From assembly GCA_963837465.1 (NCBI GenBank), contig CAWINB010000004.1, positions 522,853-586,852 on the forward strand: DNA of 64,000 nt. The letters run 5' to 3'. Under the pieces are notes generated by a model. It was not told the DNA's origin, did not search any database, and worked only from the letters and a program-made list of their open reading frames with translations. Of the stretch, positions 12,392 through 54,768 are shown in pieces. A program made the position numbers and the translations under genes. Origin of the DNA: Candidatus Doudnabacteria bacterium (GTDB taxonomy: Bacteria; Patescibacteriota; Doudnabacteria; UBA920). Position 1 is the stretch's first letter, and each line of letters starts with the position of its first letter.

Positions 12392-14014
12392 TCATAGTTC
12401 CCATACGGGTCGGTAGCTCAGTTGGTAGTAGCACCTGCCTCTTAAGCAGGTTGTCGTGGGTTCGATCCCCACCCGACCCACCAAGATATTACACAAAGGA
12501 ATTTTTCCAACTTTCCCAAGGGCTGCGCTTAGCGCAGCCCATTGTGTTTGTGGGGTGGAAACAATTTTTTGATTTTTTAAAAATAGGTGCGAGCCAAAGA
12601 TTTTTTGTGCAGCAGATTTTTTGGGGTGCAGTTCGGGCGAAAGCGTTATTTCGCCCAATTTTTGTGCGTCTTTTAAGAAGTTTTTGAGAGGTGCGAGCCA
12701 AATGTTTTGCTTTTGTTCCAGGCGGACAATTTGCTCGCTGTGCGTCTTTTTTTCTGATGTTAGTTTGTTCTTCTCCTGCCGGTATTTATCCGGTTCAATA
12801 TCTTGTTCTAGGTAACCTTGGAAAAGGCGCTCCTGCTTGCGGTCAATATCTTGTATCTTTAACCGCAAGTCCTGGACAAAAGCCGCGGTGGTTTGCGAAC
12901 CTTGCTCTGCGTCTTTGTCCGCCATGGCTTCCAGTTTCGTACCCCATTCCTTAGGCATAATAAACCCTTTTAGGACATTGGACAATTGCTTGTCTAGTTC
13001 CTCGGCTCTGATATGCAGTTGGGAGCAGGTAGTGTTTTTCTTTGTACAACGGTAATAAAGGTAATGGTGGATATTACCGTTTTTTTGATGTTTGGTCTTG
13101 GTTTCAGCGGTAATGCTTCTGCCGCATTCTCCGCATCTAAACAAGCCACATAAGGGCTTGGGGTTACTGACTTGACGGCTGGTTTTGCCTCGCTGTTTTA
13201 AGACTTCCTGAACCTTGTCAAACAGTTGCTTGGTAACGATAGGATGATGATTACCCTGGTGCAGTTCTCCTCCGTATCTGAACAGACCGCAATAAAATGG
13301 GTTGGACAGAATATATGCTGCTTGGTCGCGCTTCATGGCGTTACCTCCTGAACTCTGCCAACGCATAGTAGCTTTGGTTTCAATCCCATTGGCAAAAAAG
13401 AAAGTGGCTATATCTTCCAAGCTATATCGGCTCTCGGCATAGCGTTCAAAAGCTTGTTTGACTATGGGGGCAGTATTTTTATCTTGGACTATGGTCTTAC
13501 TCCGTAAATCGTTAAAATATCCTAATGGGGCAAGTCCCGGATATTCCCCACGCTTAGCTTTTTGGTAAAGTCCGCGCTTAGTGTTGGTGCTTAGGTCACG
13601 GACATATTGATTGGCTATCCCAAATTCTACATTCATGAGCATAACGTTATCAGCGGGATAATAACTGCGCTCCGGGGTTTGGATGTGTTTTATCGTTCCT
13701 TCCTGCAGCAGCCATTCTATCTGAGCGGCATCTACGGGGTTACGGGCAAGTCTATCCAGCTTCCAGCAGACAATGCCTTGAGCCTCACCCTTTTGTATGC
13801 GGGCAAGCATAATGGCAAAGGCAGCGCGACCCGGCCGTTTGGCTGATTGCTTTTCAATGAACTCGTCGGCAATAGTTAACCCCTGTTCCTTGGCCAGCAA
13901 CCTTAAAACCGCAAGCTGGTCTTCAATAGACCGGACTTGCTTGTCTTCAACATCGGTGGATTTGCGTGCGTAGAGGAAATAGTTGTTTACGGAAGAGATA
14001 TTTTTTGGTATCAT
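12392..14014 (-). CDS. Large serine recombinase (SR1); 3' end abuts and reads through tRNA-Lys
   Basis: Resolvase catalytic N-terminus YFLYARKSTDVEDKQVRSIEDQ...CWKLDRLARN (Ser nucleophile), recombinase domain, Cys-rich zinc ribbon, coiled coil. The last 30 aa (GRVGIEPTT...) are an antisense translation of the tRNA, so the true stop is uncertain. Confidence 0.85.
   Translation of the reverse strand: MIPKNISSVNNYFLYARKSTDVEDKQVRSIEDQLAVLRLLAKEQGLTIADEFIEKQSAKRPGRAAFAIMLARIQKGEAQGIVCWKLDRLARNPVDAAQIEWLLQEGTIKHIQTPERSYYPADNVMLMNVEFGIANQYVRDLSTNTKRGLYQKAKRGEYPGLAPLGYFNDLRSKTIVQDKNTAPIVKQAFERYAESRYSLEDIATFFFANGIETKATMRWQSSGGNAMKRDQAAYILSNPFYCGLFRYGGELHQGNHHPIVTKQLFDKVQEVLKQRGKTSRQVSNPKPLCGLFRCGECGRSITAETKTKHQKNGNIHHYLYYRCTKKNTTCSQLHIRAEELDKQLSNVLKGFIMPKEWGTKLEAMADKDAEQGSQTTAAFVQDLRLKIQDIDRKQERLFQGYLEQDIEPDKYRQEKNKLTSEKKTHSEQIVRLEQKQNIWLAPLKNFLKDAQKLGEITLSPELHPKKSAAQKIFGSHLFLKNQKIVSTPQTQWAALSAALGKVGKIPLCNILVGRVGIEPTTTCLRGRCYYQLSYRPVWEL
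12407..12483 (+). tRNA. tRNA-Lys (anticodon CTT)
   Basis: Manual cloverleaf. Acceptor GGGTCGG/CCGACCC, anticodon stem CCTGC/GCAGG with loop CTCTTAA, T-arm GTGGG-TTCGATC-CCCAC, 3' CCA. Its 3' end is the junction with the serine-recombinase island. Confidence 0.8.
12484..12629 (-). repeat. Serine-recombinase 3'-end module, copy a (authentic 3' end of SR1)
   Basis: About 146 bp including the hairpin GGGCTGCGC-TTA-GCGCAGCCC. Near-identical reverse-complement copies at 15292-15429 and 43316-43457. Boundary at ...CACCA|AGATATT. Confidence 0.65.
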
Positions 14015-14069
14015 AGTAATGTATTATAAAAGTCTTTGACTATTATTTTAATAATAGTATTATATTACT

Positions 14070-14282
14070 ATGCGGTCAAGCAATAAATCTAAAATTTCTG
14101 GGAACATAAAAAAATACCGAAATAAACTCGGTATTTCACAAGACCGTCTATCCAAGTTAGCCGATGTGACTTACAACACAATGATTAAAATAGAATCCGG
14201 CGCTAACCAAAATCCTACAATAGAAACCTTGGCAAAAATTGCCAAAGCTTTAAATGTCGGAGTAGATGATCTTATTAAATAA
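14070..14282 (+). CDS. XRE-family (Cro/C1) helix-turn-helix regulator
   Basis: 70 aa. IKKYRNKLGISQDRLSKLADVTYNTMIKIESGANQNPTIETLAKIAKAL is a canonical HTH_3. Confidence 0.8.
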   Translation: MRSSNKSKISGNIKKYRNKLGISQDRLSKLADVTYNTMIKIESGANQNPTIETLAKIAKALNVGVDDLIK

Positions 14283-14303
14283 TAATATAGCGATATATTT
14301 TAT

Positions 14304-15275
14304 ATGCCAGCAGAAACCGGCGGTGGCAATTATCCGCCACCAACACACGATAATTTAGAGGGAGAAGTTCGCCGTTCTTGGGATGTTTGGGAAAACAGAG
14401 GCCTGAAAGAACAGGTAGATGAATGCTTTCCTGGCTCAAACAATAGAGATTTGAGCATTGCTAATCATTTCGCTGCGGGCATTGTAAAGAACCACCAATA
14501 TTTTTTAGTTAACATAGGGAAAAATAATAATGTATACCGTCCTCAATATGAATGGAATTCTCAAATAGACTCTCCAGGGCTTGAGACCCCCGAGCAAAGA
14601 AAGTCTTACGTTGATGGAGTCGTAAAAGGTCTTAGTTGGCTAGAGGATGTTCCTAAAGAAGTTAGAAATTTAACCTTAAACGATTTTGGGTCAGATTTTG
14701 TTAGAAGTAACGGCTCGGTGTTGCGAGTAATACCCTTATGGGAAGATAAAACCAAGCCAATAAACAGACAGTGTAGAGTCTTAATAAATTTTACTGGTTT
14801 TACTTTCAGATCCTCTGACCCACGAGGGACACTAAACAGATACTCAATGATTTATACCATACAAAACCCCGAAAAAAGTAATTTAAACGAGATTGACGAG
14901 TATCATTTGAGACTTATGCGCGTATTACCATTTAGCTTACGAAGTGCCGCATATGTCTTAAATCCGGAAAAGGGAAAGCATTTTTTTGATTCTCAAAATT
15001 GTAACGCCGACGGACAACCCACACATTATATAAATTTCATACATAAATTTGCAGGCTCTATCCCTCCTTTACCAAATGCGATACATGCAGAAGCAAGTGA
15101 CCAAGGAGATTGGAATTTTACCGGAAAAAACTTTTCAAAATCTTCTGATAGTGAGCCAAAACAAATGGCTGACTTTGCTGCCTATACTACAAAAGAAATT
15201 GCAAGACCTGACCCGACACGTGGCGGAACTTTTGATCAGAAGGTTAAACAGCTTATTCCTGATATGTGGAGGTGA
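14304..15275 (+). CDS. Hypothetical protein (cargo of SR1 element)
   Basis: 323-aa ORF 22 bp after the XRE gene. No recognisable motifs. Confidence 0.4.
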   Translation: MPAETGGGNYPPPTHDNLEGEVRRSWDVWENRGLKEQVDECFPGSNNRDLSIANHFAAGIVKNHQYFLVNIGKNNNVYRPQYEWNSQIDSPGLETPEQRKSYVDGVVKGLSWLEDVPKEVRNLTLNDFGSDFVRSNGSVLRVIPLWEDKTKPINRQCRVLINFTGFTFRSSDPRGTLNRYSMIYTIQNPEKSNLNEIDEYHLRLMRVLPFSLRSAAYVLNPEKGKHFFDSQNCNADGQPTHYINFIHKFAGSIPPLPNAIHAEASDQGDWNFTGKNFSKSSDSEPKQMADFAAYTTKEIARPDPTRGGTFDQKVKQLIPDMWR

Positions 15276-15291: not shown

Positions 15292-15429
15292 CTGCGTCCC
15301 CCAAAAAATCTTCCCTGTTCCCGAACCTGTTTTTAAAAAATCAAAAAATTGTTTCCACCCCACAAACACAATGGGCTGCGCTAAGCGCAGCCCTTGGGAA
15401 AGTTGGAAAAATTCCTTTGTGTAATATCT
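15292..15429 (+). repeat. Serine-recombinase 3'-end module, copy b (remnant in the opposite orientation to SR1)
   Basis: CTGCGTCCCCCAAAAAATCT...GGGCTGCGCTAAGCGCAGCCC...GTGTAATATCT. Encodes a ...LFLKNQKIVSTPQTQWAALSAALGKVGKIPLCNIL remnant (ORF 15285-15479). Confidence 0.6.
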
Positions 15430-15884
15430 TGGTGAATTTTCTTAGTGAAGCTCACACCTATTATATCCAAAACAGCTAACTTTGCCTACCCCATTACCCC
15501 CTGCAATACACCCTTGCCGAGGCCAAAACTTTAGCCTAAAATGGAAGCAACTGGTACTTTCCAGCTGTATGAACAGCTGTATGAACATCATTCATACAGT
15601 TTGGCTGTTAAACCCCTTAATTCCATTACCTCTCACTACTCCAAATACCCCTGACTACTATATATCACCAGATAATCTAACTGAACGACAAAATAGATAA
15701 TAATACTAAAAATAATAATAACTAAAATACTATACTTAAAATACTAAAATACTTAATACTAACTAAATACAAATATACTAAACTAACTTAAAACAAACCA
15801 AAAAAACAAGGGAAACAGAGAGGGGAAAAGTGGGGGGGTAGTTTCTCCCGCCGCCGGAGGCGGCGGTTTAGAGGGGGTGGACTG
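15430..15884 (+). repeat. 0.5-kb repeat family, copy 1
   Basis: Starts TGGTGAATTTTCTTAGTGAAGCTCACACC. 270-bp conserved core with a 72-codon ORF (MPTPLPPAIHPCRGQNF...) and hairpin CTGTATGAA-CATCA-TTCATACAG. AT-rich low-complexity spacer. G-run box GTGGGGGGGTAG...CCGCCGCC-GGA-GGCGGCGG...AGAGGGGGTGGA. Confidence 0.7.
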
Positions 15885-15908: not shown

Positions 15909-17534
15909 ATGGCAACTTCCAAATACGTTGTCGCCCATCCGGTCTCCCGTACCCCTTTGCCACCGTATTATCTTTTGCACCAAGGCGGCGCAGCAGGACA
16001 GGCCGTCTTGTCCCACCAGTTCAACCAAATGCCTGCGTGGCTTCAGACAGGTTCTCACATCGCCTCTTCCTTATTTTCTCTACTGGTTGTATATTTCATA
16101 CTAAGCTGGCTAGGATTTTTCCCCAAACACGCTTTTGAGAAGATAAAACTTAGAAAAAAGGACTTGGAAGCAGAATTTAAAGATAGTCTGTATTTTGAAA
16201 TCACCATCCCTAAAAATTCCCAAACCACGGCGTTCCAAGTCCAGCAAAAAATCCTCAAAGCCTTCCATTCAATTTACCAAGACCCGGTGGAAGGTGCTCA
16301 TAATTTTTCCACTACCTTTAGCCTAATTTATTTCTTCCAAAAGCTCTGGCGGCATTGGAAAGTCAAACGCAGTAAACAAGTATTTTTCAGTATGCAGATT
16401 TGGGCCCAGCACCCGTATATCTCCTTTAGGCTACAGGTGCCGGGGGCTGACTTTGGGCGCATTGAAAAGGCCATTTTCAATGCCTATCCCAATGCGGAGA
16501 TTACTATGCTAGAAAAATCCAAAGCCCTTGAGGAAATCAAGCAATTTCCACAAGGCTTTTTAAGTTACGGCGAAACTACTATTGAGGGACAATTTTACCA
16601 TAGAGTTAAAACCTTAAAAGACGTATCATCAGACCCTGTAGACTCTATTATCTCGGTTATGGAAGGTCTAAAGCCAGGGCAGTTTATGGCCTACAATATT
16701 TTAATCTCCCCTTCTTCCCATTACTTCAATCAAATCATCCACTACCTTATTGAAGAGCAGGAACAAAAAGGGGTGGTAGACCAAAACCAAAGAAGATTGG
16801 CCATTCAGAAATTTGGCAGCGGTTCGGAACTGGCCAATGCCCTAAACTCCGCCATGATTGAAAAGATGAAAGCCCCTCTTTTCCAGACCATTATTTCCTA
16901 CTGGGCTATTGCCGATACCAAACACAGTGCGGAAGATAAACTCAAAAGTATCCAAGGGGTGTTAACGGAAATCAATCAAAAGAACATGAATACCCTTAAG
17001 CACCAACACCTGTTTACCAAACAGGTGGGTGCTCTTGAGCGGAAAGGCAAGCTGACAGAGATTATCGCCCAAAAGCCGGTGTTCCGCCTAAAGCGTTTTC
17101 CCTTATGGCCATTTGCCAAGTTCAAAAACTACGGGCAGGTCATCTCTGACAGCGAGCTATACTCTTTCTGGCACTTGCCGAATACCACGGGAGGTACGGT
17201 ATCTTCCATTAGGCTGACTAAATTTAAAAAACTCCCGGCCAGCCAAGCGCTTCGGGAATATTCAGACAATTTTTTCATCTCCCTGGGTCATGCCAATTTC
17301 CGTATGCAGGAAGAAACACCAATCGGCATTGCCAGCTGGGAAGACATGAAAAAGCACGTTTACATCCTTGGCGGTACCGGCTCCGGCAAGTCCGAGACTT
17401 TAAAAACCATTCTCCATAGCCTACTGGAAAAAGACAACGACATATCCGCTTACCCTATTGAGCTTCGCCAGGGTTATGGCTGGCAAAAAGAATGCCCTAG
17501 CAGCATTACCCAAAACTGCCCTACTGATAATTGA
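15909..17534 (+). CDS. HerA/FtsK/VirB4-VirD4 superfamily ATPase, N-terminal part (gene interrupted by a frameshift)
   Basis: 541 aa. N-terminal TM segment LFSLLVVYFILSWLGFF. Walker A ILGGTGSGKSETL near its C-terminus. The frame changes between 17404 and 17476. Confidence 0.55.
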   Translation: MATSKYVVAHPVSRTPLPPYYLLHQGGAAGQAVLSHQFNQMPAWLQTGSHIASSLFSLLVVYFILSWLGFFPKHAFEKIKLRKKDLEAEFKDSLYFEITIPKNSQTTAFQVQQKILKAFHSIYQDPVEGAHNFSTTFSLIYFFQKLWRHWKVKRSKQVFFSMQIWAQHPYISFRLQVPGADFGRIEKAIFNAYPNAEITMLEKSKALEEIKQFPQGFLSYGETTIEGQFYHRVKTLKDVSSDPVDSIISVMEGLKPGQFMAYNILISPSSHYFNQIIHYLIEEQEQKGVVDQNQRRLAIQKFGSGSELANALNSAMIEKMKAPLFQTIISYWAIADTKHSAEDKLKSIQGVLTEINQKNMNTLKHQHLFTKQVGALERKGKLTEIIAQKPVFRLKRFPLWPFAKFKNYGQVISDSELYSFWHLPNTTGGTVSSIRLTKFKKLPASQALREYSDNFFISLGHANFRMQEETPIGIASWEDMKKHVYILGGTGSGKSETLKTILHSLLEKDNDISAYPIELRQGYGWQKECPSSITQNCPTDN

Positions 17535-18783
17535 CCCTAAAAACGACTTTGCCACGGATTTATTAACCATGATTCCTGAGAACAGGAAACAAGATGTGGT
17601 TTACTTTAATCCGCAAAGACAAAAGAACAGGCCTTTGGCTTTTCCGTTCTTTTCCAAGTTTTCCGGGGACAAGACCGATGAGGAAAAACTGGAGTTTTTA
17701 ATCTCCATTATGAAAAGGTTTGTGCAAATAGATTCCAGTTATTCTTGGGGGCCGGAACTGGAAAACATCCTAAGGCAACTGTTTGCTACGGCTTTTGTCT
17801 TGCCCGAGCAATCTCTGTCCGGCCTTGACTTACTGCTCCACCAGCAAAGCCAGATTAAAAACATTATCAGATATCTGCCGGAACGGCTTAAGGGGTTTTG
17901 GCAGGATTCAATTTTAAACCGAACAAACAACGATCTGGCTAAGTATTTGGCCACAACTAACAACAAGTTGGGCAAGTTTTTGGATTATCCCGAGTTTATG
18001 AATATCGTGGACAGACAGGGTACAAAAATATCCTTTGAAGATATGATTAACACCGGCAAGATATTTATAGCTAACCTTGGCTCTTCCAGCGAGCAGATGA
18101 AAAAGTACTATTCAGTTTATCTAACCGCCCATATTGCCGAGGCTATCTTTGGTCAGGCTAGGTTTAACAGCGAGGACAGAAAACCAGCAGTCTTTGTGGT
18201 AGATGAGTTCCAAAGAGTGGCCAGCGACATCTTTGAGACCTTGTTTTCCGAGGTTAGGGCTTTTAACACGGCCTTAGTCATCTCTAACCAGTTTATGGGT
18301 CAGCTGGATATTCGTATACAAAAATCCATAGAGTCCAACATTGCCACCAAAATCTTTATGCGGACCCAGTCGGTGGATGACGCCGAGATTGCCGAAAAGA
18401 TATTAGGCCAGAAGGTTTTAGTTGAAGACATTATTAACCTGCCCACAGGTACCGCTTACATCAAGACTTTGGTTAATGGTATACCCCAAGACCCCCTGTC
18501 TATTAATATCCAGAAAACAGAACATCCCAAAGACGCTTCCAAAGACATGGAGGATTACTTTATCAATATGGCTATGGACAAGTACGGTACACCCCTTGAG
18601 GACATATTAAAAGAGCGCACCGCCATAAATTCTCTCTATTATTCAGGAGGGCAAGAAAATAAATTTCACGAAGCTATGGGAAAGCATAGAACCTTTGCCG
18701 CCCCAGATCAAGGAACGGGAGGCAAAGACCAGCAGATGGAAGAACCGCCGGAGCCGGAGGATCCAGAGCCACAAAATATTTAA
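17458..18783 (+). CDS. HerA/FtsK/VirB4-VirD4 superfamily ATPase, C-terminal part
   Basis: LLIIDPKNDF (DP-x-G/N-D/E motif that follows Walker A in this superfamily), Walker B VFVVDEFQ, TALVISNQ. TTG start; continuous with 15909-17534 after a +1 shift. Confidence 0.55.
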   Translation: MSFARVMAGKKNALAALPKTALLIIDPKNDFATDLLTMIPENRKQDVVYFNPQRQKNRPLAFPFFSKFSGDKTDEEKLEFLISIMKRFVQIDSSYSWGPELENILRQLFATAFVLPEQSLSGLDLLLHQQSQIKNIIRYLPERLKGFWQDSILNRTNNDLAKYLATTNNKLGKFLDYPEFMNIVDRQGTKISFEDMINTGKIFIANLGSSSEQMKKYYSVYLTAHIAEAIFGQARFNSEDRKPAVFVVDEFQRVASDIFETLFSEVRAFNTALVISNQFMGQLDIRIQKSIESNIATKIFMRTQSVDDAEIAEKILGQKVLVEDIINLPTGTAYIKTLVNGIPQDPLSINIQKTEHPKDASKDMEDYFINMAMDKYGTPLEDILKERTAINSLYYSGGQENKFHEAMGKHRTFAAPDQGTGGKDQQMEEPPEPEDPEPQNI

Positions 18784-18805
18784 CAATTTTTGATTTTAAA
18801 ATTAT

Positions 18806-19708
18806 TTGCCCATGAATTTTAATAACCCCAATGTTAAATTAACCCCAAGACCCCAAGGCCAAAGCTACCACCTGCACATTAACCAATCGGCTTTGGAAGT
18901 TTTAGGTTTGATTTTTGAATTTAAACTGGCCACCGGCTGGCATATCTCCAGATTTTTAACCCAAAAGGACTATGTCCAATACGTCTATTTAAAGCTCCGT
19001 AGGATGTGGCAGGCAGGTTACTTGGAAAGCTTTAAAATTTCATCGGAATCCGCAAACGGCATCCCCGTCTACTATATACTCTCCCGCTCCGGCCTTAAAG
19101 TCTTAGCCGAACACGGCCTTTATTCTGAAAGCCAGCTGTCAAACTATCCCAAGGCTAAAACTCTGTTTTCTCCGCACTTGTTTAAACACGAATCAGCAGT
19201 TGTGGAACTGGCCAGTCTAGAAGCACAAAACAAGACAAAAGATTTAGACATCAAATTTAAAGGTGAACTAAGTTCCCAAGGCCAAAACATCTTAAGCGAC
19301 AAGACTGTTGAATCCTTAACTCCCGATTATACCGTCTATTATACCCATCAAGGCCAAAGTCATTGTGTCTACAGCGAATTGGAACGCACGTCAAAATCCA
19401 AAACAGCCCAGATTAAGAAAATTGAAAGATACTTGGATTTTTTGAGTTTTGAGCAAAGACAGGCTATAACGTTAAGGCTCATTTTCCAAACAGCGGGCAT
19501 GGAGCAGTCGTTTTGGTTAAACGCCTTAACTAATTTACCCAGGCTCCATAACATCAGGGTTGTTACAACAAATATTGCACTATTACACACGCCTGACAAG
19601 TTCCTTAAGCCCATTTATAGCTCGGAGCAAACAGTCAAACTCGGCAGGTTTGGCGGGCGGCTGACTGTTGATACATCCGGGCGTGTAAAGCTTTTTGAGT
19701 TTTTATGA
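18806..19708 (+). CDS. Replication-relaxation (Replic_Relax) family protein
   Basis: 300 aa. The N-terminal winged-helix-like segment LEVLGLIFEFKLATGWHISRFL resembles PF13814. Sits next to the coupling-protein-like ATPase. Confidence 0.5.
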   Translation: MPMNFNNPNVKLTPRPQGQSYHLHINQSALEVLGLIFEFKLATGWHISRFLTQKDYVQYVYLKLRRMWQAGYLESFKISSESANGIPVYYILSRSGLKVLAEHGLYSESQLSNYPKAKTLFSPHLFKHESAVVELASLEAQNKTKDLDIKFKGELSSQGQNILSDKTVESLTPDYTVYYTHQGQSHCVYSELERTSKSKTAQIKKIERYLDFLSFEQRQAITLRLIFQTAGMEQSFWLNALTNLPRLHNIRVVTTNIALLHTPDKFLKPIYSSEQTVKLGRFGGRLTVDTSGRVKLFEFL

Positions 19709-19856
19709 GTAGCGCGGTTACGGAGCTGTTAGATAAATGCGCGCGCAAGGGCGGGCGAGGCAAAGCGCATTACCTATTAATTTTCCCTCCTTTATATCTT
19801 AAAGGAGGTTTCGTTCTTTCAAACTAGTATGCGAATCAGCAGTTACTATAACGTGG

Positions 19857-20282
19857 TCAAGTACGTGAATACCAAGGAGCTTTCCCGCATCTTACCAATC
19901 GCTTGGTAACAGCAAGGTCTTCTGTTGATGGCTCAAGGCTACCGCTTGGGTGGTTATGGACGAATATCACTGAACAGCAATTCTTTAAAATAGCAGTCCT
20001 AAAACATTCCCGTGGATGGATAATGCTAGCGTTTAATGTGCCAATGCTAACCGTTTCTTTACCGGTAATTCTGTTTTGAGTGTCTAGAAAAAAGACTCGG
20101 AAGTTTTCTTTTCGGGCTTTTTTAATGTCTTTACACCTTAAGGCAATTTCAAGCGGACTGCAAATTGCATCCCGCACTGCCTTAACGTTTAAATTGTTAC
20201 TTACGTAGCTTTGGGCTTTCTCTTTAGCCTCGTTTTCGTTTTCAGCTGTGAAGCTGTAGTTAATGTTGATTTGGTATTCCAT
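19857..20282 (-). CDS. radC: RadC-like JAB/MPN-domain protein (3'-truncated)
   Basis: VIFVHNHPSGSLEPSTEDLAVTKRLV carries the HNHPSG JAMM motif. The ORF ends about 25 aa earlier than typical RadC. Good SD AAGGAG upstream. Confidence 0.7.
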   Translation of the reverse strand: MEYQININYSFTAENENEAKEKAQSYVSNNLNVKAVRDAICSPLEIALRCKDIKKARKENFRVFFLDTQNRITGKETVSIGTLNASIIHPRECFRTAILKNCCSVIFVHNHPSGSLEPSTEDLAVTKRLVRCGKAPWYSRT

Positions 20283-20304
20283 AAAACTCCTTTTTGATTA
20301 CTTG

Positions 20305-26700: not shown

Positions 26701-26703
26701 AAA

Positions 26704-48300: not shown

Positions 48301-51300
48301 ATTGTAGCCTTGGGTTGACTGTAAAGTCGGAGCCACAGCATATGTGGTAGGTATTTGTGCTGTCTGCGTTGACGGCGCTGTTACAGTAAAGGCCGTTGTC
48401 GTTGTGGCCCCAAATGTAGTATTGACTGTCACGGTGTGGCTGCCAAATGCGATGCCTTGTAATGAGAGATTTATTTGATTGGCCGTCTGGGCAGCGATGG
48501 TGGCAGGCAAGCCGTCAATGGTTACGGTATCACCTGAAGCGTCAAAGGTACCATAGATAATGAGGTAGGTATTGGCAACAGCGGTATTGTTGGTATAGGC
48601 GTTGGTAGTAGGGTCAAAGCCTTGAACGCCGCTAATGGAGGCTGTCTTGGTTGGATTGGAAAGCGTTGGTGTGGACACATTAACGTTTAAGTTTTGGGAT
48701 GTACCGCCGCTATTACTAACAGAAACATTGAGCGAGGTTAGACCGGTAAGATTCCCCAACAAGATATTAATCTGACTGACGCTTTGATAGCTAATGTTAC
48801 CAGTTACTACTGCCTGGCCGTTAATAATAACTGTGTTGCCGGAGGCGGAAAAGTTGCCGTATAGAATAAGGTACTGGTTGGAAGTAACGGTGCCATTTGT
48901 GTAGCTATTACTGATTGGGTTGTAGCCTTGCGCTGAATTTAAAACCGGAGCCGAGAAGGCCGACACGACAGGGACGGAGGCAGGTGGCGGCGGGGCAACC
49001 GGCGGAATAGTAAATGAACTTTGGCTGGAAGTCCCATTGGGATTGGTAACTGTAACCGTGTGTTGACCCGAGGCCAAGCTGCCGCTAAGTAAAACATTAA
49101 TCTGGTTTTGGGTTTGTGCAGTTTCATTAGCCGTTTGTCCGTCTATGCTGACTTTATTATCGTTACTGGCCGAGAAGTTGCCGTAAAGAATAAGGTATTG
49201 TCCGGCAGTAACATTGCTGCTATTAGTGTATTGGCCGGTTGCGGTGTTGTAGCCTTGAACGCCGGAGATGGTGGGAACCGAAACCACAGACGTAGCCTGG
49301 GCAATATTCAAAGTAACTTGCTCGCTTCCTGGGGTATTAACCCCATCACTGGCGGTAACCGTAATATTATTAAAAGAACCGGACACTGTGGGAGTGCCGG
49401 AGATAATCCCAGTAGTTTGATTGATAATTAATCCGCTTGGCAAGCCCTGGGCTGACCAGGTATAATTGCCGTTGCCGTTGCTGGCAGTTAAGGAAGCTGA
49501 ATAGGTTTGATTCACCGTTCCAGAAGCCAAGGAACCGGAAACATTTATCTGACTAACGGTCGGGGTTTGTGCCGGGGCAGTCACGGTAAAGGTACTGGCG
49601 CTGGAACTGCCGCCGATATTACTGACAACCACGCTGTGCTGGCCCGAACCGAGAGTAGAGTTTAGCTGTACATTAATCTGGTTTTGAGTTTGAGCCGTGA
49701 CAGTGGCCTGCTGGCCGTCAATGTTAACGGTGTTATCTTGATTGGCCGAAAAACTTCCATAGAGGATTAGATAGTTGCCAGCCGTTGCTATGCCATTGGT
49801 ATAACTACCAGTAGCGGGATTGTAGCCTTGGATGCCGGAAATAGTCGGGGCAGTTTGGACGGCTGGGGGTGGCGAAGTCTGCTTAACAAATAATCCTTCA
49901 ACGCTGTCGTATGAAGTGAACCCCAAAGATTGAGCCGTTAAATTTAAGCTGGTGCTGCTGCCCATACCCAAAGCCCAGGCAAACACGCTGCCAGGGGCAA
50001 GAGTCTGGAAGTTTTGTCCGGTTAAGGCAGTGGGGTTGTCCGTTAGATAGCTGGTTAAAGCAGACTGTTCATCCGCGGTTAAACTGCCGTAAAGAATGGT
50101 ATTGGCTCCGGCAACTATTTGCTGGACGCGGGCAGAAGTAACAACGGCTGGAGCAGGATCAATATTTAAAGTAAATGCCTGGGTGCCGGGAGTATTAGTT
50201 CCATCGCTGGCGGTAACGGTGACAGTAGGATTTTCGGACTCCGTGGGGGTGCCGGAGATAACACCGGTGCTTGAGTTGATGCTCAAGCCAGCCGGTAAGC
50301 CCTGGGCTGACCAGGTGTAATTGCCATTGCCGTTGCTGGCAGTAAAAGTGGCAGAATAATTTTGGTTAACCGTACCACCTGGGGCTGTGCCGGAAACGGC
50401 TATTTGGCTAACGGTCGGTGTTTGCACAGGGGCAGTTACAGTAAAGGTGCTTTGGCTGGAGGTACCGCCGGTATTACTAACTGTAACATTGTGCTGGCCG
50501 GAACTGATACTAGAGCTAAGCAGCACGTTTATCTGGTTTTGGGTCTGGGCAGTCACCGTTGCTGCTTGCCCGTCTATACTTACCGTATTATCTTGGTTAG
50601 CTGAAAAGCTGCCATAAACAATTAAATAGTTGCCAGCTGTCGCTGTGCCATTAGTATAACTGCCGGTTGTCGCAGCATAGCCCTGGATGCCGGAAATGGT
50701 TGGAGCAATAGCAGCTGGAGCCTTGATTTGCAGGGAAAAACTTTGGCTGCCAGCGGTATTAACCCCGTCACTGGCCGTAACAGTGACAGTAGGATTTTCG
50801 GACTCCGTGGGGGTGCCGGAGATAACACCGGTGCTTGAGTTGATGCTCAAGCCGCTCGGCAATCCTTGGGCTGACCAGGTGTAATCGCCGTTGCCATTGG
50901 CTGCTGTGAGTGTGGCAGAGTAATCTTGGCCGACTGTGCCGGAAGCAAAAGAGCCGGAAACCGTAATTTGCTTTACAGCAGGAGCAGGTACACTAACTTG
51001 GACGTTTAAGCTTTGGGAGGTACCACCTTGGTTGGTAACAGTTACGCTAATGGATGACAGTCCGGAAAGGTTAACTCCGGACAGAGGAACATTGAGCTGG
51101 TTGGTAAGCTGGGAGTCGGGAGTAACTGTCTGGATGTTTTGGCCATTTTGGCTGATCCGGACAGTGTTCCCGGAAGCCGCGAAACTGCCGTAAAGGATTA
51201 AATACTTTCCGGCAGTAACAGTATTGTTGGTGTAGTTACCGGTATCTGGATCATAGCCTTGGGCTGTAACCAAGGTTGGCGCAGAGATGGTTGGCGCGGG

Positions 51301-51777
51301 AATAGCAGGAGCTTGGCTTTGTAGATTCCAAACGTTGCCTTGAAGTGTATACGTCTGGCCAAGAATAGTCTGGCTAGTTTCAACCCCCCCCCAGCCAAGC
51401 ATATATGCCGTTACGCTGTCGCTGTTTATGGCTGAAATCGAGCCGGCCTGAATCAGGCTTACTAAAGCGTCATGGATACCGCTCATATCATCGGCGCTGA
51501 TTGTGGTTGGGTCGTAGGTTGTGGTACTGGCGTTGTCAGCAGTCAAGGTAAAATCAGCATGAGCGGTCTGTGCGCCAAAGATTGACTCCACCTCCTGCTT
51601 TATCTTATCATTGCCGCTATTGGTGTTTGTGCTGACAATAGCCGTCTTGCTCTGATTGGCAAAGCCGGAGCCGGTACTGACCAAAGTGGAGGCCAAACCT
51701 AAACCGGCCAGGATTTTTTCTTTGGTGGTTACGATTTTTTTGTTTCTCTTGACCCGTTTGATTTTTACTCTTTCCAT
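45199..51777 (-). CDS. Giant surface protein with tandem TIG/IPT-like and He_PIG (putative Ig) domains
   Basis: 2192 aa. N-terminal KKIVTTKEKILAGLGLASTLVSTGSGFA anchor or signal. About 10 repeats of PTISGIQGY...YLI(V/L)YGSFSA...TVTAP (TIG-like) alternating with VSGT...YSATLTASNGNGNYTWSAQGLP.GLSIN..TG.ISGTPT (He_PIG). Near-identical DNA tandem repeats inside the gene. Confidence 0.8.
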   Translation of the reverse strand: MERVKIKRVKRNKKIVTTKEKILAGLGLASTLVSTGSGFANQSKTAIVSTNTNSGNDKIKQEVESIFGAQTAHADFTLTADNASTTTYDPTTISADDMSGIHDALVSLIQAGSISAINSDSVTAYMLGWGGVETSQTILGQTYTLQGNVWNLQSQAPAIPAPTISAPTLVTAQGYDPDTGNYTNNTVTAGKYLILYGSFAASGNTVRISQNGQNIQTVTPDSQLTNQLNVPLSGVNLSGLSSISVTVTNQGGTSQSLNVQVSVPAPAVKQITVSGSFASGTVGQDYSATLTAANGNGDYTWSAQGLPSGLSINSSTGVISGTPTESENPTVTVTASDGVNTAGSQSFSLQIKAPAAIAPTISGIQGYAATTGSYTNGTATAGNYLIVYGSFSANQDNTVSIDGQAATVTAQTQNQINVLLSSSISSGQHNVTVSNTGGTSSQSTFTVTAPVQTPTVSQIAVSGTAPGGTVNQNYSATFTASNGNGNYTWSAQGLPAGLSINSSTGVISGTPTESENPTVTVTASDGTNTPGTQAFTLNIDPAPAVVTSARVQQIVAGANTILYGSLTADEQSALTSYLTDNPTALTGQNFQTLAPGSVFAWALGMGSSTSLNLTAQSLGFTSYDSVEGLFVKQTSPPPAVQTAPTISGIQGYNPATGSYTNGIATAGNYLILYGSFSANQDNTVNIDGQQATVTAQTQNQINVQLNSTLGSGQHSVVVSNIGGSSSASTFTVTAPAQTPTVSQINVSGSLASGTVNQTYSASLTASNGNGNYTWSAQGLPSGLIINQTTGIISGTPTVSGSFNNITVTASDGVNTPGSEQVTLNIAQATSVVSVPTISGVQGYNTATGQYTNSSNVTAGQYLILYGNFSASNDNKVSIDGQTANETAQTQNQINVLLSGSLASGQHTVTVTNPNGTSSQSSFTIPPVAPPPPASVPVVSAFSAPVLNSAQGYNPISNSYTNGTVTSNQYLILYGNFSASGNTVIINGQAVVTGNISYQSVSQINILLGNLTGLTSLNVSVSNSGGTSQNLNVNVSTPTLSNPTKTASISGVQGFDPTTNAYTNNTAVANTYLIIYGTFDASGDTVTIDGLPATIAAQTANQINLSLQGIAFGSHTVTVNTTFGATTTTAFTVTAPSTQTAQIPTTYAVAPTLQSTQGYNNVTNTYETAQNTIMANDTYLILYGSFAASGNTVSINGQTVPAAAITYQSTGQINISLAGITTTGSSFTVSVSNANGVSQSLSVSSRASLQTTPVVKTTGDKTAANTTTPNQAISSSGISGVESYNPATGQYGDSTNITAGQYLILYGTFSASNNTVTIGDQTYTAADGILETAGQINVPLPADMAPGNYNVTVTSALGTTDPVSVTVLAPLTQTRVTQENGGSIHQTYDSSQNQWVDAPQNGDTRNTSSPQLYVNGLWLQFPGNVVNPGTAITFTDAAGNSYQVTYTYLPDGEVQAGLSYNGQTVVIRDDQVGALQADGSYSDFSSQLPQDLQTQILSNWPADQNNGIGFLTPLFGQSQLQLNVDGTVVNASDVVKDKNGNIISYVDNAGFVYYRVGSAWLEQTNTPNAYVLTDLQGNSIGPSDYKLGAATVSNDANGNPVSISGYLLAATVGSASPVYASSGIPATFTIGAGASQGVVTGSASGITFVPYTAGDGSGTDYLVMQNNFVIDTVPAAGQQAYQYAVTNNLSNFTVTSTNDGLYMITSGSGASQILTYFDDSGMVSNLTPYSVVSATQNGLEVLTGLDGSTSIQYGGFNNTPSNVLTNATVAQDSSGNILSATGTNGSGNQITMESMGNVWAELPTGATQAASVNIYGSDGSITMTLTNVSISLDSSGAVTSITGTTSAGDSMTLTSGVAPATTVNTDGSVNATPVGSYQIVPIAPAADGSNQYAIMTPGGQVVDTVGDAGKAAWQYAIANNLAGVDVQEVNSDFSIIDNTDTTSGVVDSNFIDNQGNILANSAPVVAAAYSAASALAEIPLTTAQSSAINSGQVILYQSQNQTESFVATLPVLQGLGASFDAMWPNNTGSNNVGGFTLTNPCLIAWVAQLNYLNGQVPAAAQPLFNFMVSNNIITKNAAGKFVLTPSVQNGIQISSPYMSVFKHEGQHLANAANPATMANQYNQNSAITNLFLKAYLIAQGYSTSDPNAVMDESTAYQTAQLSEHPKPAPTSLPNSAAIRIYDKLFHSAFQSST

Positions 51778-51918
51778 ACCTTTGGTTTTGAGAGCATTGA
51801 ATAAATGGCTACATGGTAGTAGCCAAGCTTGGAACTTGGCTTAATTTTATCTTTTTTTAAAGGCTTTAGCAAGCTGCAGCTACGGAAAAGTTTCAGGATT
51901 CTTTACCCCCTTGACCCA

Positions 51919-52398
51919 CTACTGTGAAGAAACAAGGTCTTGGACACTAAGCACATCACTGATAAAGAGCCCATTTTTGGCGGTACTACTTGAAATATCA
52001 ATAACTCTTATTTTTCCTTGATAGTATTTTATATATCCGGTTATGGTTCCATCGGGCCCATCAGCAGACGAGGGCAGCAGTATATAAGCTGGATTACCTT
52101 GATTTGTGACTGGTGGCAAATTCTGTATCAAATTTAAGTTTTGGTCCAAATAAATTGCTGTCTGATATCCTGCATTGGTCAAAGCCTGTTCATAGTAAGT
52201 CAAAAAGTTTTGGTCGCCCCCGTAAAAGCCCGCGTAGGTACTAGTACTATTTTCCCATGCCAAAATACCAGGGTCTGTATTTGTTGCTTCATAGAATTGG
52301 CCTGTCAGAGATAATGTTTTGTCGTTTATATCAAACTCATCATACCCAATGTCAGATGAGGTGGCGGACGCAGAGTGCCATGCGTCTTTTGAATACAT
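51919..52398 (-). CDS. Hypothetical protein
   Basis: 159 aa, immediately upstream of the giant gene on the same strand. Confidence 0.4.
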   Translation of the reverse strand: MYSKDAWHSASATSSDIGYDEFDINDKTLSLTGQFYEATNTDPGILAWENSTSTYAGFYGGDQNFLTYYEQALTNAGYQTAIYLDQNLNLIQNLPPVTNQGNPAYILLPSSADGPDGTITGYIKYYQGKIRVIDISSSTAKNGLFISDVLSVQDLVSSQ

Positions 52399-52427
52399 GG
52401 CCGGAACAGTGAAATTTGCTCCGTCAT

Positions 52428-52718
52428 CTATTGAGGTGATTGAAGCAGTCTGTTGAGTGGTTGTAGGACTAATGCCTGTTGACTAACAGAGGCCGGTATT
52501 GCTGATAGACTAAGAGCCATATTTTTTGGTTTGTATTGGACTACTACTGGCCCTAAGTTTTGAGGCTGATTGTAAATAAAATAAATCCAGACCGAAACCG
52601 CCGCTACCACGGCCAATATGCAAATGACAATTATGCCTTTGTGGTTATACCATTTTTTAGGTTGTTGCGGCTGTTGTTGAGATTGAGATGGAGGCAAAAC
52701 TTCATTTGAATTTTCCAT
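52428..52718 (-). CDS. Small membrane protein, Gln-rich N-terminus
   Basis: 96 aa, one TM helix IIVICILAVVAAVSVWIYFIY. First gene of the minus-strand operon. Confidence 0.4.
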   Translation of the reverse strand: MENSNEVLPPSQSQQQPQQPKKWYNHKGIIVICILAVVAAVSVWIYFIYNQPQNLGPVVVQYKPKNMALSLSAIPASVSQQALVLQPLNRLLQSPQ

Positions 52719-52758
52719 TTTTTTATTCCATTTTTTGAAGATAATTTTTTATTCACCC

Positions 52759-52769
52759 ATATTATACCA
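52759..52769 (-). promoter_or_regulatory. Extended -10 promoter element for the giant-protein operon
   Basis: Reads TGgTATAAT on the minus strand, about 45 bp upstream of the 96-aa gene start. Confidence 0.4.
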
Positions 52770-52934
52770 CACTTGGTTCTAATTCCTGTTTCTTTTATAC
52801 AAAAAATACCTATTCTTATAGGTAAATTTATACTGGAGCGGTCTTAGGGACGATTATTGATTCCCCTGGTGATTAATCATTCCCATAAGCTGTTTGGTTA
52901 GGCCCGCATTAGTTTCCTGGCAGTCCACTATACT

Positions 52935-53444
52935 CCCCGGTTTCTCCCACCCCTGTTTTTTGAGTCTTTTCCACCCCCCATGCTTTTGTATTGATTTTTA
53001 GGTTTTGATGTTTTTGGTATTTTTTAGGTTTTAGATTGAGATTTTAATTGTAGTCTTTGGATTTGCTGTGTTTTGGTTCTTTGGGTTTCTTTGTTTTTTA
53101 GGGTATAGTTAAGTTAGTTTAGTATATTGGTATTTTTTAGTATAGTTTTTTGTAGTCAGTTTCTCTTTTTGTATTATCTATTTTGTCGTTCAGTTAGATT
53201 ATCTGGTGATATATAGTAGTCAGGGGTATTTGGAGTAGTGAGAGGTAATGGAATTAAGGGGTTTAACAGCCAAACTGTATGAATGATGTTCATACAGCTG
53301 TTCATACAGCTGGAAAGTGCCAGTTGCTTCCATTTTAGGCTAAAGTTTTGGCCTCGGCAAGGGTGTATTGCAGGGGGTAATGGGGTAGGCAAAGTTAGCT
53401 GTTTTGGATATAATAGGTGTGAGCTTCACCAAGAAAATTCACCA
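52935..53444 (-). repeat. 0.5-kb repeat family, copy 4 (reverse orientation)
   Basis: Reverse complement of the core (one substitution in the 72-codon ORF). Boundary ...AAAATTCACCA at 53444. Lies downstream of the truncated SR4. Confidence 0.7.
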
Positions 53445-53541
53445 CTTAGTGCACCTCGTCAACATGACCGAGGTGCTTTAAGTTTGCCTAAAGAAAAAAC
53501 ACGAGCGATCGTGTTTTTATTTTATGCTATTTTCTAGTCTA

Positions 53542-54390
53542 TTACAAACTGACGGTTATTTGCTTGTCTTTGAGGATTAATTTGCTTTTTAGGCAGGCCA
53601 TCAGTTCTCTCTTTTCCAGTAAACTACCGTCGGTCAAAATATATTTGGTATAATTTTTTAGGTCTAAATTTTTCTGTAGTAGTTGATCCTGCTGGCTCTG
53701 ACCTAATACTAAGTGTCGGAATTTATTATAGCTCTCTAGCTTTAGCTCTATCTGCTGTTTGATGCCCAGCTTATCCAAATCTACTTCCTCGATAACTTTT
53801 AGCAGCTGACCTACTAAGAGGTCTTCTTTAATATAGTTGCCTGGGCAAGCCCGGTCTTTACTCTTGGTACAGCAGTAGTATACGTATTTAGCTACCGAAC
53901 CGTCTTTGAGATTTTTAAACTTTTCATTGGCGCTTATGCTGGAGCTACAAATGCCGCATACTATGAGTCTGGTAAAAGCGAATTCTTTACCGATAGTTCT
54001 GGGCTTAAGCTCAGCATCCAAAGTTGCTTGGGCTTTATCGAACATTTCCTTTGTGATAATCGGCTGGTGCTTTCCTTGGAAATATTTTTTACTTCTTCGC
54101 GGATACTCAATCTGCCCGTAGTAGAACGAGTTCCTTAATAATAAATAAAGATTACTTAAGTGGAACGGCTTGCCATTTTTAGTTACAAACCTGACCTCAT
54201 CTCGCGGCCACAAGTAGACCCTCCGTCCGCTCTCGCCCTGCCCGACTTTTTCAAACACTTGCTTAACCACCGGCGCTCTAATTGGATCAGGGATTACCGA
54301 GCAAGGCCTGTCTTTATGATATTCGTTGACGTACTCGGTCGGAGCCATTCCCCTGCAAGGGTGTTTTGCAGGGGGTAAAGGGGTGGCCAA
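53542..54390 (-). pseudogene. Truncated large serine recombinase (SR4)
   Basis: 282-aa ORF keeps the recombinase domain, zinc ribbon (CGICSS...YYCCTKSKDRAC) and coiled coil. It lacks the resolvase catalytic domain; the N-terminal MATPLPPAKHPCRG is translated from a degenerate copy of the repeat core. Confidence 0.65.
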
Positions 54391-54720
54391 AATCAGCCGT
54401 TTTGGATATAATTAGTTCGTACCAAGTTGTAAGGGTACACCAAAATATTACACAAAGGCATTTTGCCAACTTTTTGATGGGCTGCGCTTAGCGCAGCCCA
54501 TTGTGTTTGCGGGATGAATTCAATTTTTTGATTTTTTTAAAACAAGTTCGGGCCGAAAATTTTTGCGCAGTATATTTCTTGTCTGCAAGGAGGTGTAAAC
54601 TGCGATTTTACTGAAGGTTTGGACACCTTGTATGAAGTTTTTCAGAGGTTCTAACCAAGCTCTACGGTTTTGTTCAAGGCGGCCAATTTGCTCGTCCAAA
54701 GCCGGCTATTTACAGACAGT
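54352..54720 (-). repeat. Degenerate repeat core plus SR3-like 3'-end remnant
   Basis: CAAGGGTGTTTTGCAGGGGGTAAAGGGGTGGCCAAAATCAGCCGTTTTGGATATAAT (diverged core, reverse complement) then CACCAAAATATTACACAAAGG...GGGCTGCGCTTAGCGCAGCCCATTGTGTTTG and about 200 bp alignable with the SR3 3' region. Ends where holA begins. Confidence 0.55.
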
Positions 54721-54768
54721 CTCTTAAATCGGATAGCCAAAATTGGCAGTTTTTGATAAAGTATCCCT

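Follow-up and report, generated by a model that had tools for sequence, protein, structure and literature searches.

SCC elements carry the large serine recombinases CcrAB and lie at the 3' end of rlmH/orfX. They resemble the locus described here in that serine-recombinase elements stand in tandem at one chromosomal site and make up composite islands with decayed members. They differ from it in their pair of Ccr enzymes, their protein-coding target and the direct repeats around their units, and they have neither an inverted internal site nor a tRNA. In the 2-micron plasmid (Flp/FRT) and in Salmonella Hin, the recombinase gene lies between inverted copies of its own site and there are two arcs, as here. 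The enzymes of those systems belong to other families, however, and at our locus one site is fused to a host tRNA and inversion is putative. The inverted sites notwithstanding, the enzymes here are large serine recombinases (LSRs) of 510-540 aa and not DNA invertases of the Hin/Gin type.

The phage LSRs (A118/LI, SPbeta SprA, phiC31, Bxb1) have the same resolvase, recombinase and zinc-ribbon domains as the enzymes here and also use a short shared core. Phage integrases have protein-coding genes as targets, whereas the elements here are found at the CCA end of tRNA genes. Unlike in the phage systems, the 3' coding end of the enzyme's own gene serves as the P' arm, there is a second, inverted attP-like copy (arms of 113-170 nt), and occupied junctions have apparently been reused as targets. 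In both groups the element arm has a distal recognition motif at a greater distance from the centre than the host arm does, by 4 bp here and by 5 bp for LI integrase (PMC3783163).

Tycheposons of Prochlorococcus are site-specific at tRNA genes and form islands from tandem arrays in a streamlined genome, as here; 910 of 937 have tyrosine recombinases, with partial tRNA duplications, and a minority have large serine recombinases (10.1101/2020.12.28.424599). The island described here is not a tycheposon. It agrees in tRNA anchoring and tandem stacking only; it has serine-type integrases that read into the tRNA, and it shares 5 bp with the tRNA rather than having partial tRNA repeats. Classical tRNA islands (Islander type) use tyrosine integrases and likewise place accessory DNA 3' of a tRNA that is kept intact. 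The split tRNA is restored and the displaced fragment forms a direct repeat (PMC4383910). At our locus, Pfam searches found no tyrosine recombinase and only CACCA is repeated, so the island does not belong to this class either.

Contents of the island at tRNA-Lys

We analysed 64,000 nucleotides of a Candidatus Doudnabacteria contig (the window). Accessory DNA occupies window positions 12484-54710 (~42 kb), between tRNA-Lys(CTT) (12407-12483, plus strand; ARAGORN, Rfam 65.6 bits) and holA. About 5% of the 868-kb genome lies at this one tRNA end. A first-pass annotation had proposed an island of this size anchored at tRNA-Lys, and its right end (54730) is acceptable given that the last element-derived base is at ~54710. 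It had also correctly described the flanks as housekeeping: pilus genes, tRNA-Arg and IMPase are on the left, and holA, EamA, typA and a permease are on the right. A recombinase remnant does lie beside holA, as it had stated. The two GC-rich patches that it reported measured 52% (20606-22571) and 55% (38611-39240), and the R-M/SIR2 block has 34% GC compared to 45% in the flanks. As a genomic island, the region is ordinary. We made an inventory of the genes between the flanks with Pfam, PADLOC and PHROGs.

Seven copies of a CACCA core delimit the stacked elements, of which there are at least five: an SR1 element (22 kb), an SR2 element (4.7 kb), a 14-kb unit in which an SR3 element is fused to a second remnant of the SR1 type, and two remnants. 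Element 1 starts with SR1 (12392-14014, minus strand), an intact LSR gene whose reading frame runs across the core and stops within tRNA-Lys, on its antisense strand. The 3' end of the gene constitutes arm A (12479-12626), with a GC hairpin at 12520-12540. The rest of the SR1 arc (14070-15275, plus strand) contains a gene for an XRE-type HTH protein (14070-14282) and a second ORF, of unknown function (14304-15275). An internal inverted attP-like site follows (15322-15839, minus strand), made up of A' (15322-15434, 98% identical to A), the core as TGGTG (15430-15434), and B1 (15430-15839), which has a T-loop-mimic arm and a promoter-like site directed at the core. The cargo arc (15909-34228) begins with a frameshifted TraG/VirD4/FtsK-like ATPase gene (15909-18783), followed by a Replic_Relax gene, a truncated RadC gene, GC-rich ORFs (20606-22571) and a gene-poor stretch (22572-23997). 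Its right part holds a type I R-M operon with an embedded SIR2-HerA system (23998-32508), IS630 (32537-33667) and a bactofilin gene. The SIR2 and HerA genes (PADLOC, 1.9e-57 and 8e-179) are adjacent, between hsdR and hsdS, as in SIR2-HerA defence systems. The right end of element 1 is B2, a P-type arm (34343-34741, plus strand; core 34737-34741) that forms the junction B|C with element 2.

Element 2 contains SR2 (34692-36287, minus strand), from a second recombinase lineage, with an in-frame TAG at 35001-35003 and a terminator-like hairpin (34752-34769) in its 3' arm C. The remainder (36403-39406) has a rolling-circle Rep gene (36403-37242), a 278-aa ORF, an RNase H-like ORF and arm D (core 39402-39406). 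SR3 (39324-41054, minus strand) is intact, belongs to the SR1 family (66% aa identity to SR1) and crosses the core into arm D. An IS3-family element (41713-43085, minus strand) truncates the ORF at 41145-41786 and connects the SR3 element with what is left of another SR1-type element. This remnant (43083-43959, minus strand) comprises the distal end of a recombinase arc of the type found in SR1 and in a relative, L005 (43083-43375 is 86% identical to L005), and then an inverted attP-like site with A'' (43315-43462, 99% identical to A), a core (43458-43462) and B3 (43457-43959). The adhesin cargo arc (44079-52718, minus strand) encodes a 2192-aa surface protein with Ig/TIG repeats and three neighbouring ORFs. 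It is flanked by 502-nt inverted repeats, B3 and the P-type arm B4 (52943-53444, plus strand; core 53440-53444), and B4 makes the junction B|E. The B repeats form two pairs, one in element 1 and one in the adhesin element. The element 4 remnant (53445-54442, minus strand) has arm E with a hairpin, SR4 (53542-54390, minus strand) lacking the catalytic domain (no PF00239 match), a B-like arm (54350-54437) and a core (54438-54442). The element 5 remnant (54438-54710, minus strand) is what remains of an SR1-like gene: ~90 codons from its 3' end, interrupted by a frameshift and a stop. It finishes 58 bp short of holA.

The first-pass annotation had listed four serine recombinases or remnants; these are present, and the remnant at 54438-54710 brings the count to five. 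Of the three IS elements that it placed in the island, two (IS630 and IS3) are inside; two further IS, of which one sits inside the other, are found beyond it at 56319-58858. Its R-M/SIR2-HerA locus, rolling-circle Rep and giant adhesin locus all held up. So did its picture of decay (truncated SR4 and RadC, the frameshifted ATPase and the IS-truncated ORF), to which we add the SR2 nonsense codon and the truncated SR5. Its conjugation-like module is represented by the frameshifted coupling-type ATPase and Replic_Relax, and does not amount to a complete transfer apparatus or to an integrative conjugative element. The island is not a prophage: Pfam and PHROGs gave no structural matches and the recombinase family is absent from IMG/VR.

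SR1, SR2 and SR3 match PF00239, PF07508 and PF13408, the resolvase catalytic, recombinase and zinc-ribbon domains of LSRs, and SR1 and SR3 are the only intact recombinases in the island. The YxRKSTD and DRLARN motifs are invariant (alignment A1), and matches in the PDB were to the A118 and SPbeta integrases. None of the phage and plasmid recombinases that were searched exceeded 28% identity, and a search of IMG/VR gave no relatives of the family.

Integration sites here and at other tRNAs

We found that every internal boundary of the island coincides with a 5-bp core. CACCA, the last five nucleotides of tRNA-Lys (12479-12483), consists of the final base of the acceptor stem, the discriminator base and CCA, and it is present at seven junctions (tRNA|A, B|C, D|A3, B|E, B-like|A-like and two inverted A|B) exactly where sequence identity changes partner. 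Each recombinase gene has its 3' end directly to the right of a core, all in the same orientation. The tRNA supplies the chromosomal (B-type) arm. The left boundary of the island is exact, the presumed crossover lying within 12479-12483, at a point of the core that a scan for dyad symmetry did not locate. Neither here nor in L005 could we identify the native B' arm, which would be on the right of the tRNA-Lys site. The tRNA-Lys 3' end is not duplicated beyond the 5-bp core, so the island is not reduced to a smaller element bounded by such a copy. We saw no empty site, excised circle or population variant, and identified no directionality factor. In an independent assembly, the Logan contigs of ERR10755945, both the tRNA|A junction and the sequence next to holA are reproduced without mismatch; these contigs stop where the repeats start.

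The T-loop motif GTTC is at -19±1 in the tRNA arm. In 37 related loci the core-facing element arm has a copy of the motif 4 bp farther from the core. Its position there is -23 in 33 of 39 loci, a displacement of precisely 4 nt. A short shared core with a motif at differing spacing is characteristic of LSR elements. LI integrase has a 5-bp shift of its ZD motif between attP and attB (PMC3783163), and the 4-bp shift of GTTC matches this known half-site rule of serine integrases. Most elements have a second, inverted attP-like copy that separates the recombinase arc from the cargo arc, and this three-site layout is seen in many independent loci.

In homologues of SR1 and SR2, too, the reading frame passes the core and continues on the antisense strand of a tRNA, with more than 12 different tRNAs represented. 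Their C-termini ('...LV G.GIEP.T') correspond to the antisense T-arm, with LV encoded by the reverse complement of CACCAA. A convergent tRNA overlapped the gene end in 41 of the 48 metagenome loci with enough downstream sequence, and these tRNAs had 11 amino-acid identities; at least four of the remaining seven had a T-arm at the position of the gene end. SR2 homologues have the same tails, and one (L087) overlaps tRNA-Glu.

The relative L005 has the same flanks (pilus, tRNA-Arg and tRNA-Lys on one side; holA, typA, permease and zwf on the other), and has only an SR1-type element of ~4 kb in the interval from tRNA-Lys to holA. SR1 and its L005 orthologue share 90.6% identity, compared to 41-72% for the flanking core proteins. 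Relatives had been predicted to have tRNA-Lys followed directly by holA. The short interval in L005 goes in that direction and the whole island is not shared, although we found no relative with tRNA-Lys joined directly to holA.

Formation of the island

We think it likely that the interval is a tandem stack of elements, each inserted by an LSR at the CCA end of tRNA-Lys, and that decay followed. Each element would have an attP-like site with a T-loop-mimic P arm, the core CACCA and, as the P' arm, the 3' coding end of its own recombinase gene. Recombination with the tRNA end would place the recombinase gene tail-to-tail with the tRNA and shift older elements to the right, and the GC hairpin in the P' arm could terminate the tRNA transcript. 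A newcomer would then find as its target the junction of tRNA, core and the 3' end of the old recombinase gene. If newcomers used this tRNA-side junction, then the newest element (SR1) would be next to the tRNA and the oldest remnants next to holA. Among canonical serine integrases, attP does not react with attL-type sites, and stacking on an occupied junction would depart from that rule. In SR1-type elements the inverted attP-like copy divides the recombinase arc from the cargo arc, and later nonsense mutations, frameshifts and IS-linked deletions have disabled most modules. Any present-day activity of the elements is putative. The first-pass annotation had suggested repeated tandem or nested integration at one att site. 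CACCA at all junctions bears out the tandem part; the nested appearance is due to the conserved internal inverted site of SR1-type elements and not to nesting of elements. The A'' and B3 copies beside the SR3 element are 99-100% identical to the element 1 copies, so gene conversion or recent rearrangement has blurred the history.

It is possible, although unlikely, that the region is a working multi-segment inversion system, similar to a shufflon or the 2-micron plasmid, in which the recombinases would flip both recombinase arcs and cargo arcs and the order of cores reflects function and not history; this would partly exclude a tandem stack. The orientation of the cores alternates (+,-,+,-,+), every arc lies between inverted repeats (113-502 nt, 96-100% identity), the same three-site layout recurs in many independent loci, and the sites around the recombinase arc have identical cores and right arms, so inversion would be permitted. 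However, the surveyed gene ends nearly always face the tRNA and not the mimic arm, indicating that the orientations are not in equilibrium. In addition, the promoter-like sites are within the repeats and point outward at both ends, so flipping the cargo would not switch its expression, and inversion leaves unexplained why four different recombinase lineages share one orientation.

Entry of a single large integrative, mobilisable element, with the extra recombinases, Rep and IS as cargo or as later arrivals that did not use the tRNA, seems to us very unlikely. The outermost sites, tRNA|A (12479) and B|E (53440), do fit the ends of one SR1-type element, and the interval contains a transfer-like ATPase and a relaxase-like gene. 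Yet SR2, SR3, SR4 and the fifth remnant each lie exactly at a core, all in one orientation, reading into tRNAs is a native trait of SR2 homologues, the element 2 module (278-aa ORF, Rep and SR2) also occurs independently on an unrelated contig, and L005 has just the 4-kb recombinase arc at the same site. Least probable of all is an assembly chimera, in which alternative tRNA-Lys occupants of different cells and excised circles were joined through shared repeats. The order and orientation of modules across the 274-300-nt repeats (100% identical, four occurrences) come from a single assembly, attP-like junctions lie within the contig, and the short-read contigs of ERR10755945 break at these repeats. 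In contrast, dozens of unrelated assemblies and samples show the same layout with its paired B repeats and inverted attP-like copy, only partners share the distal part of a B repeat (B1 with B2, B3 with B4), and the source contig is 868 kb. A tandem stack at tRNA-Lys is the reading that we prefer.

The recombinase family and Patescibacteria

The recombinase family is widespread and apparently undescribed, with an unusual site layout, and its architecture appears to be a new feature. We propose, tentatively and for the reading as a whole with short of even confidence, that these recombinases define an undescribed class of integrative elements that is widespread in Patescibacteria (CPR). Elements of this class would dock on the universal tRNA 3' end through the T-loop and CCA end, with an element arm that mimics the T-loop at a 4-bp shift. 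The hairpin-bearing 3' coding end of the recombinase gene would be the other arm and could double as a replacement terminator for the tRNA. If the inverted attP-like copy is always present, then the free form would resemble a two-arc circle of the 2-micron type. If all junctions have the form of tRNA-like arm, core and recombinase-end arm, then occupied sites could be targeted, and islands built, in genomes of <1 Mb.

The same recombinase family is at tRNA ends in many CPR lineages, so this may be a general mechanism of island building in CPR. If the family recognises a sequence common to all tRNAs, it would provide a new natural test of the half-site spacing rule, since the attP arm is a shifted copy, and would be of interest for recombinase biology and engineering. 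CPR genomes are tiny, and few ways for them to acquire genes are recognised. The cargo gained at this locus includes defence systems (type I R-M and SIR2-HerA) and a giant surface protein.

Junctions and contents of the island

We found that every boundary in the island, which lies between tRNA-Lys(CTT) (12407-12483; ARAGORN and Rfam) and holA, switches partner at the same 5-bp core. Read in the tRNA orientation this core is CACCA, made up of the CCA of tRNA-Lys and the two bases before it (the last of the acceptor stem and the discriminator base). Repeat A is the 3' end of the gene for SR1, the leftmost of the large serine recombinases SR1-SR4, and has two inverted copies (98-99% identity) and one diverged direct copy. 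A repeat search of the window gave four copies and one diverged stub of repeat B (290-500 nt). In direct orientation, the core joins the tRNA to A (12479), B to C, the 3' end of SR2 (34737), D to A3, the 3' end of SR3 (39402), B to E, which runs into the SR4 stop (53440), and a B-like to an A-like arm (54438). In inverted orientation it joins A to B, at 15430 and at 43458. All of the recombinase genes are on the minus strand with 3' ends directly right of a core, and the ORFs of SR1 (12392-14014), SR2 (34692-36287) and SR3 (39324-41054) read through it. Judged from the sequence, this pattern is the mark of site-specific recombination at a single site, in agreement with the repeated tandem integration at one att site proposed in the first-pass annotation.

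The cores divide the island into element 1 (12484-34741; the SR1 element), element 2 (34742-39406; SR2, a rolling-circle Rep, a 278-aa ORF and an RNase H-like ORF), element 3 (39407-53444), element 4 (53445-54442; the SR4 remnant) and element 5 (54443-54710; a 3' remnant of an SR1-like gene). Element 3 combines an SR3 element with a second SR1-type remnant. IS3 extends to 43085, and from 43083 on the sequence matches the distal part of the recombinase arc of L005, a related locus with the same flanks, at 86% identity. We therefore infer that the SR3 element and what is left of another SR1-type element, which carries the adhesin arc, were fused beside the IS. Excision of element 1 would leave tRNA-Lys joined to arm C (GGTTCGATCCCCACCCGACCCACCAAAGCATTTTCACCGCCTGCG), and excision of the whole stack would leave it joined to arm E (...CCCGACCCACCACTTAGTGCACCTCG).

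Listing of ORFs and scans with Pfam, PADLOC and PHROGs from 12484 to ~54710 recovered nearly all of the content previously described. The island has a TraG/FtsK-like ATPase gene that a frameshift near 17455-17480 has split, a Replic_Relax protein alongside it, a truncated RadC, a type I R-M operon whose hsdR and hsdS genes enclose SIR2-HerA, and a 2192-aa Ig/TIG-repeat protein with three adjoining ORFs. Two GC-rich patches (20606-22571, 52% GC; 38611-39240, 55% GC) are distinct from the flanks (45%), as claimed. The four serine recombinases or remnants that had been counted are all present, including the SR4 remnant, which lacks the catalytic domain (53542-54390, minus strand), but there is also a fifth, SR5, beside holA (54438-54710, minus strand; ~90 codons from an SR1-like C-terminus, disrupted by a frameshift and a stop). 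Of the three IS elements placed inside, IS630 (32537-33667) and IS3 (41713-43085) were found there; the third was not, and two further IS elements, one nested in the other, lie right of holA.

Between the first GC-rich patch and hsdR, ~1.4 kb (22572-23997) had no convincing gene. The sole ORF there of more than 100 aa is low-complexity, a 131-aa ORF has no family match, and the stretch is probably decayed cargo. Exact-protein look-ups gave no match for SR1, P0015, the ORF at 14304-15275 or a 72-aa ORF present in the four copies of B. We regard this last ORF as a by-product of the repeat. Right of holA, outside the island, an EamA transporter gene is shortened to 124 aa (55822-58858 region). 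Behind it is an rve-type IS (~56319-58858), interrupted at 56979-58115 by an IS630 copy whose terminal repeats are 28 nt long.

Recombinase ends and attachment sites

SR1 has thousands of homologues, most of them unnamed or labelled Patescibacteria. In an alignment of 12 members, the C-termini (...ILV G.GIEP.T) are the antisense translation of a tRNA T-arm, with LV corresponding to the reverse complement of CACCAA. We fetched 80 metagenome loci with 45-62% identity. Among the 48 that have at least 150 bp past the gene, a convergent tRNA overlaps the gene end in 41, with 11 amino-acid identities (shorter contigs added Val); at least 4 of the remaining 7 have a T-arm at that position. SR2 belongs to a separate lineage (26% identity to SR1), yet the tails of its homologues are the same. 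The closest relatives of SR2 end in ...MVGWVGIEPTTNGLKGRCSTD, one homologue overlaps tRNA-Glu, and another is in a module like element 2, with the 278-aa ORF, Rep and recombinase. These tRNA-reading tails indicate that SR2 once adjoined a tRNA end and was displaced afterwards, and a displaced SR2 is what stacking would predict. The SR2 gene has an internal TAG stop. We considered an alternative genetic code and rejected it; the homologues are full length without TAG, and so we read the stop as a nonsense mutation. An SR4-like gene adjoins tRNA-Gln in a Saccharibacteria MAG, with a ~190-nt spacer.

In ~60 of 82 loci, the final 113-171 nt of the gene, up to the tRNA junction, recur as an inverted copy upstream of the gene. 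The start codon is frequently just 50-300 bp from this copy, which makes the minimal unit ~1.8 kb long; in other loci the distance is 1-7 kb. Beyond it is a sequence conserved across the family, aaaatAGGTTCgAGC...TAtAat. On the tRNA side, the GTTC of the T-loop is at -19+/-1 from the repeat boundary. On the element side, 33 of 39 loci have a copy of this motif (the mimic) displaced outward by exactly 4 nt. In LI integrase, the motif for the zinc-ribbon domain occupies attP positions 16-24 and is shifted 5 bp inward in attB (PMC3783163). Taken with that shift, the 4-nt offset suggests that the mimic is a P-type (element) arm and the tRNA a B-type (host) arm. In the window, B, B-like and D each end in a degenerate form of the mimic.

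The cargo arc is closed by a third site, at which, in the seven loci with enough sequence to score, the mimic-bearing region recurs in inverted orientation (130-305 nt, 98-100% identity). This gives a general layout of tRNA / core / A - recombinase arc - A' / core / B1 - cargo arc - B2 / core / X, where X is in many cases the 3' end of a further recombinase gene. Both element 1 and the adhesin element fit, and the predicted circle junction B2/A would be the same as the internal sites over ~390 nt. Dyad symmetry gave no consistent centre for the crossover. L040 is one locus where the arms show symmetry about the flank/repeat boundary, but the -1 base differs between sites, so the crossover must fall inside the core. 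At a few loci (L024 and L034/L035), the recombinase arc has a mimic-type arm, in place of a tRNA, at each end; such loci could represent unintegrated forms or the alternative orientation of the arc.

We examined the A arms of 35 loci, and each carries, 40-60 nt past the junction, a GC-rich hairpin whose loop is 3 nt long. In the window it is at 12520-12540, as a perfect palindrome encoding the recombinase motif WAALxAA, at the same position in the 35 loci. Many of these hairpins differ between loci through compensatory changes. Because the stem varies yet stays complementary, selection seems to be on a DNA or RNA hairpin and not on the protein alone. The hairpins of A, in the tRNA direction, and of C have terminator-like scores, and in E the hairpin is followed by T residues; the tRNA may gain a terminator from the element. 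A promoter-like site aimed at the core, TAGGCA-17-TATAAT, is present in each B copy, and the one at the internal site could give a short RNA antisense to the recombinase 3' end. ARAGORN and Rfam found no tRNA-like or known RNA in B. At 15548-15640, and in the other three copies, B has a hairpin (CTGTATGAA..TTCATACAG), then tandem GTTCATACAGCT GTTCATACAGCT, and then an AT-rich stretch with AGTAT-like repeats. This region resembles a protein-binding or origin/nick region, and similar repeats are found past the distal site of L006.

Flanking synteny and independent assembly

The locus L005 (ENA ERZ27254241), which surrounds P0002 (an SR1 homologue, 90% identity), has the same flanks as the window: pilB, pilC, pilM, three small ORFs, tRNA-Arg and tRNA-Lys(CTT) on the left, and holA, typA, a permease gene and zwf on the right. 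It had been expected that relatives would have tRNA-Lys directly followed by holA. The synteny agrees with this in direction: in L005 tRNA-Lys and holA are separated by only ~4 kb, which holds the recombinase gene, genes for a LexA-like and a metallo-beta-lactamase-fold protein, and a 163-aa ORF. We found no empty site (tRNA-Lys without an element) in relatives. The tRNA/CACCA/A junction is common to both genomes. SR1 and its counterpart are 90.6% identical, whereas the flanking core proteins are 41-72% identical, a difference that fits a mobile gene. Upstream of holA in L005 (7607-7672), an inverted copy of the recombinase 3' end stops 87 bp before the core and meets the holA start codon, indicating that the native right arm of the site was deleted there too.

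Short-read Logan contigs of ERR10755945 match 7473-12508 and 54480-55793 with zero mismatches and end 30 nt into the repeats. These contigs support the outer junctions independently of the long contig.

An IMPase gene (11520-12311) lies between tRNA-Arg (11349-11425) and tRNA-Lys, an interval (11426-12406) that is just 112 bp in L005 and lacks the gene. A search for synteny via this gene gave only two distant genomes (73-74% identity), without shared gene order. In both, the homologue adjoins tRNA-Gln, and in one it is also beside an SR4-like recombinase. The IMPase gene may be a relic of mobile cargo.

Probable serial integration and its alternatives

The best-supported reading is serial integration at the CCA end of tRNA-Lys, in which the newest element is the one closest to the tRNA and decay came later. 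An incoming attP-like site (mimic arm, core and recombinase 3' end) would recombine with the occupied junction between the tRNA and an older recombinase end. Canonical serine integrases are not known to recombine an attP-like site with such a junction. Stacking in this way is plausible because all of the junctions have the same form. The decay that had been proposed is seen in the SR2 TAG, the truncated SR4, SR5 and RadC, the ATPase frameshift, the IS630 and IS3 insertions and the gene-poor stretch before hsdR.

Free inversion of the arcs at equilibrium seems unlikely, since in the surveyed loci the gene end is nearly always toward the tRNA. Nor is the layout likely to be an assembly error. 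Although the order of modules between 100%-identical repeats is known from one assembly, the same layout is seen again in unrelated assemblies. We rejected phase variation of the adhesin or R-M genes as the main reading: the promoter-like sites are within the repeats and face outward at both ends, so that flipping would not switch expression of the cargo.

We regard the island itself as ordinary in kind, and its recombinase-site architecture as a new variation on a known theme. Like tycheposon arrays, it is a tRNA-anchored stack, but it has neither a tyrosine integrase nor partial tRNA repeats. It also resembles the stacks of composite SCC islands, but without Ccr pairs at rlmH. By domain content the recombinases are large serine recombinases, and they match the structures of the A118 and SPbeta integrases. 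Among the phage and plasmid recombinases searched, none exceeds 28% identity to them, and IMG/VR had no relatives. In the literature, which we covered incompletely, serine recombinases at tRNA ends were not described for CPR or Saccharibacteria, a weak sign of novelty.

Contigs ended less than 150 bp from the end of the recombinase match in 34 of 82 cases (L007-L086 survey), many of them near query residue 479, where repeat A starts. It appears that the inverted repeats of the SR1 family systematically break short-read assemblies, and such breaks probably hide islands of this type in CPR MAGs.
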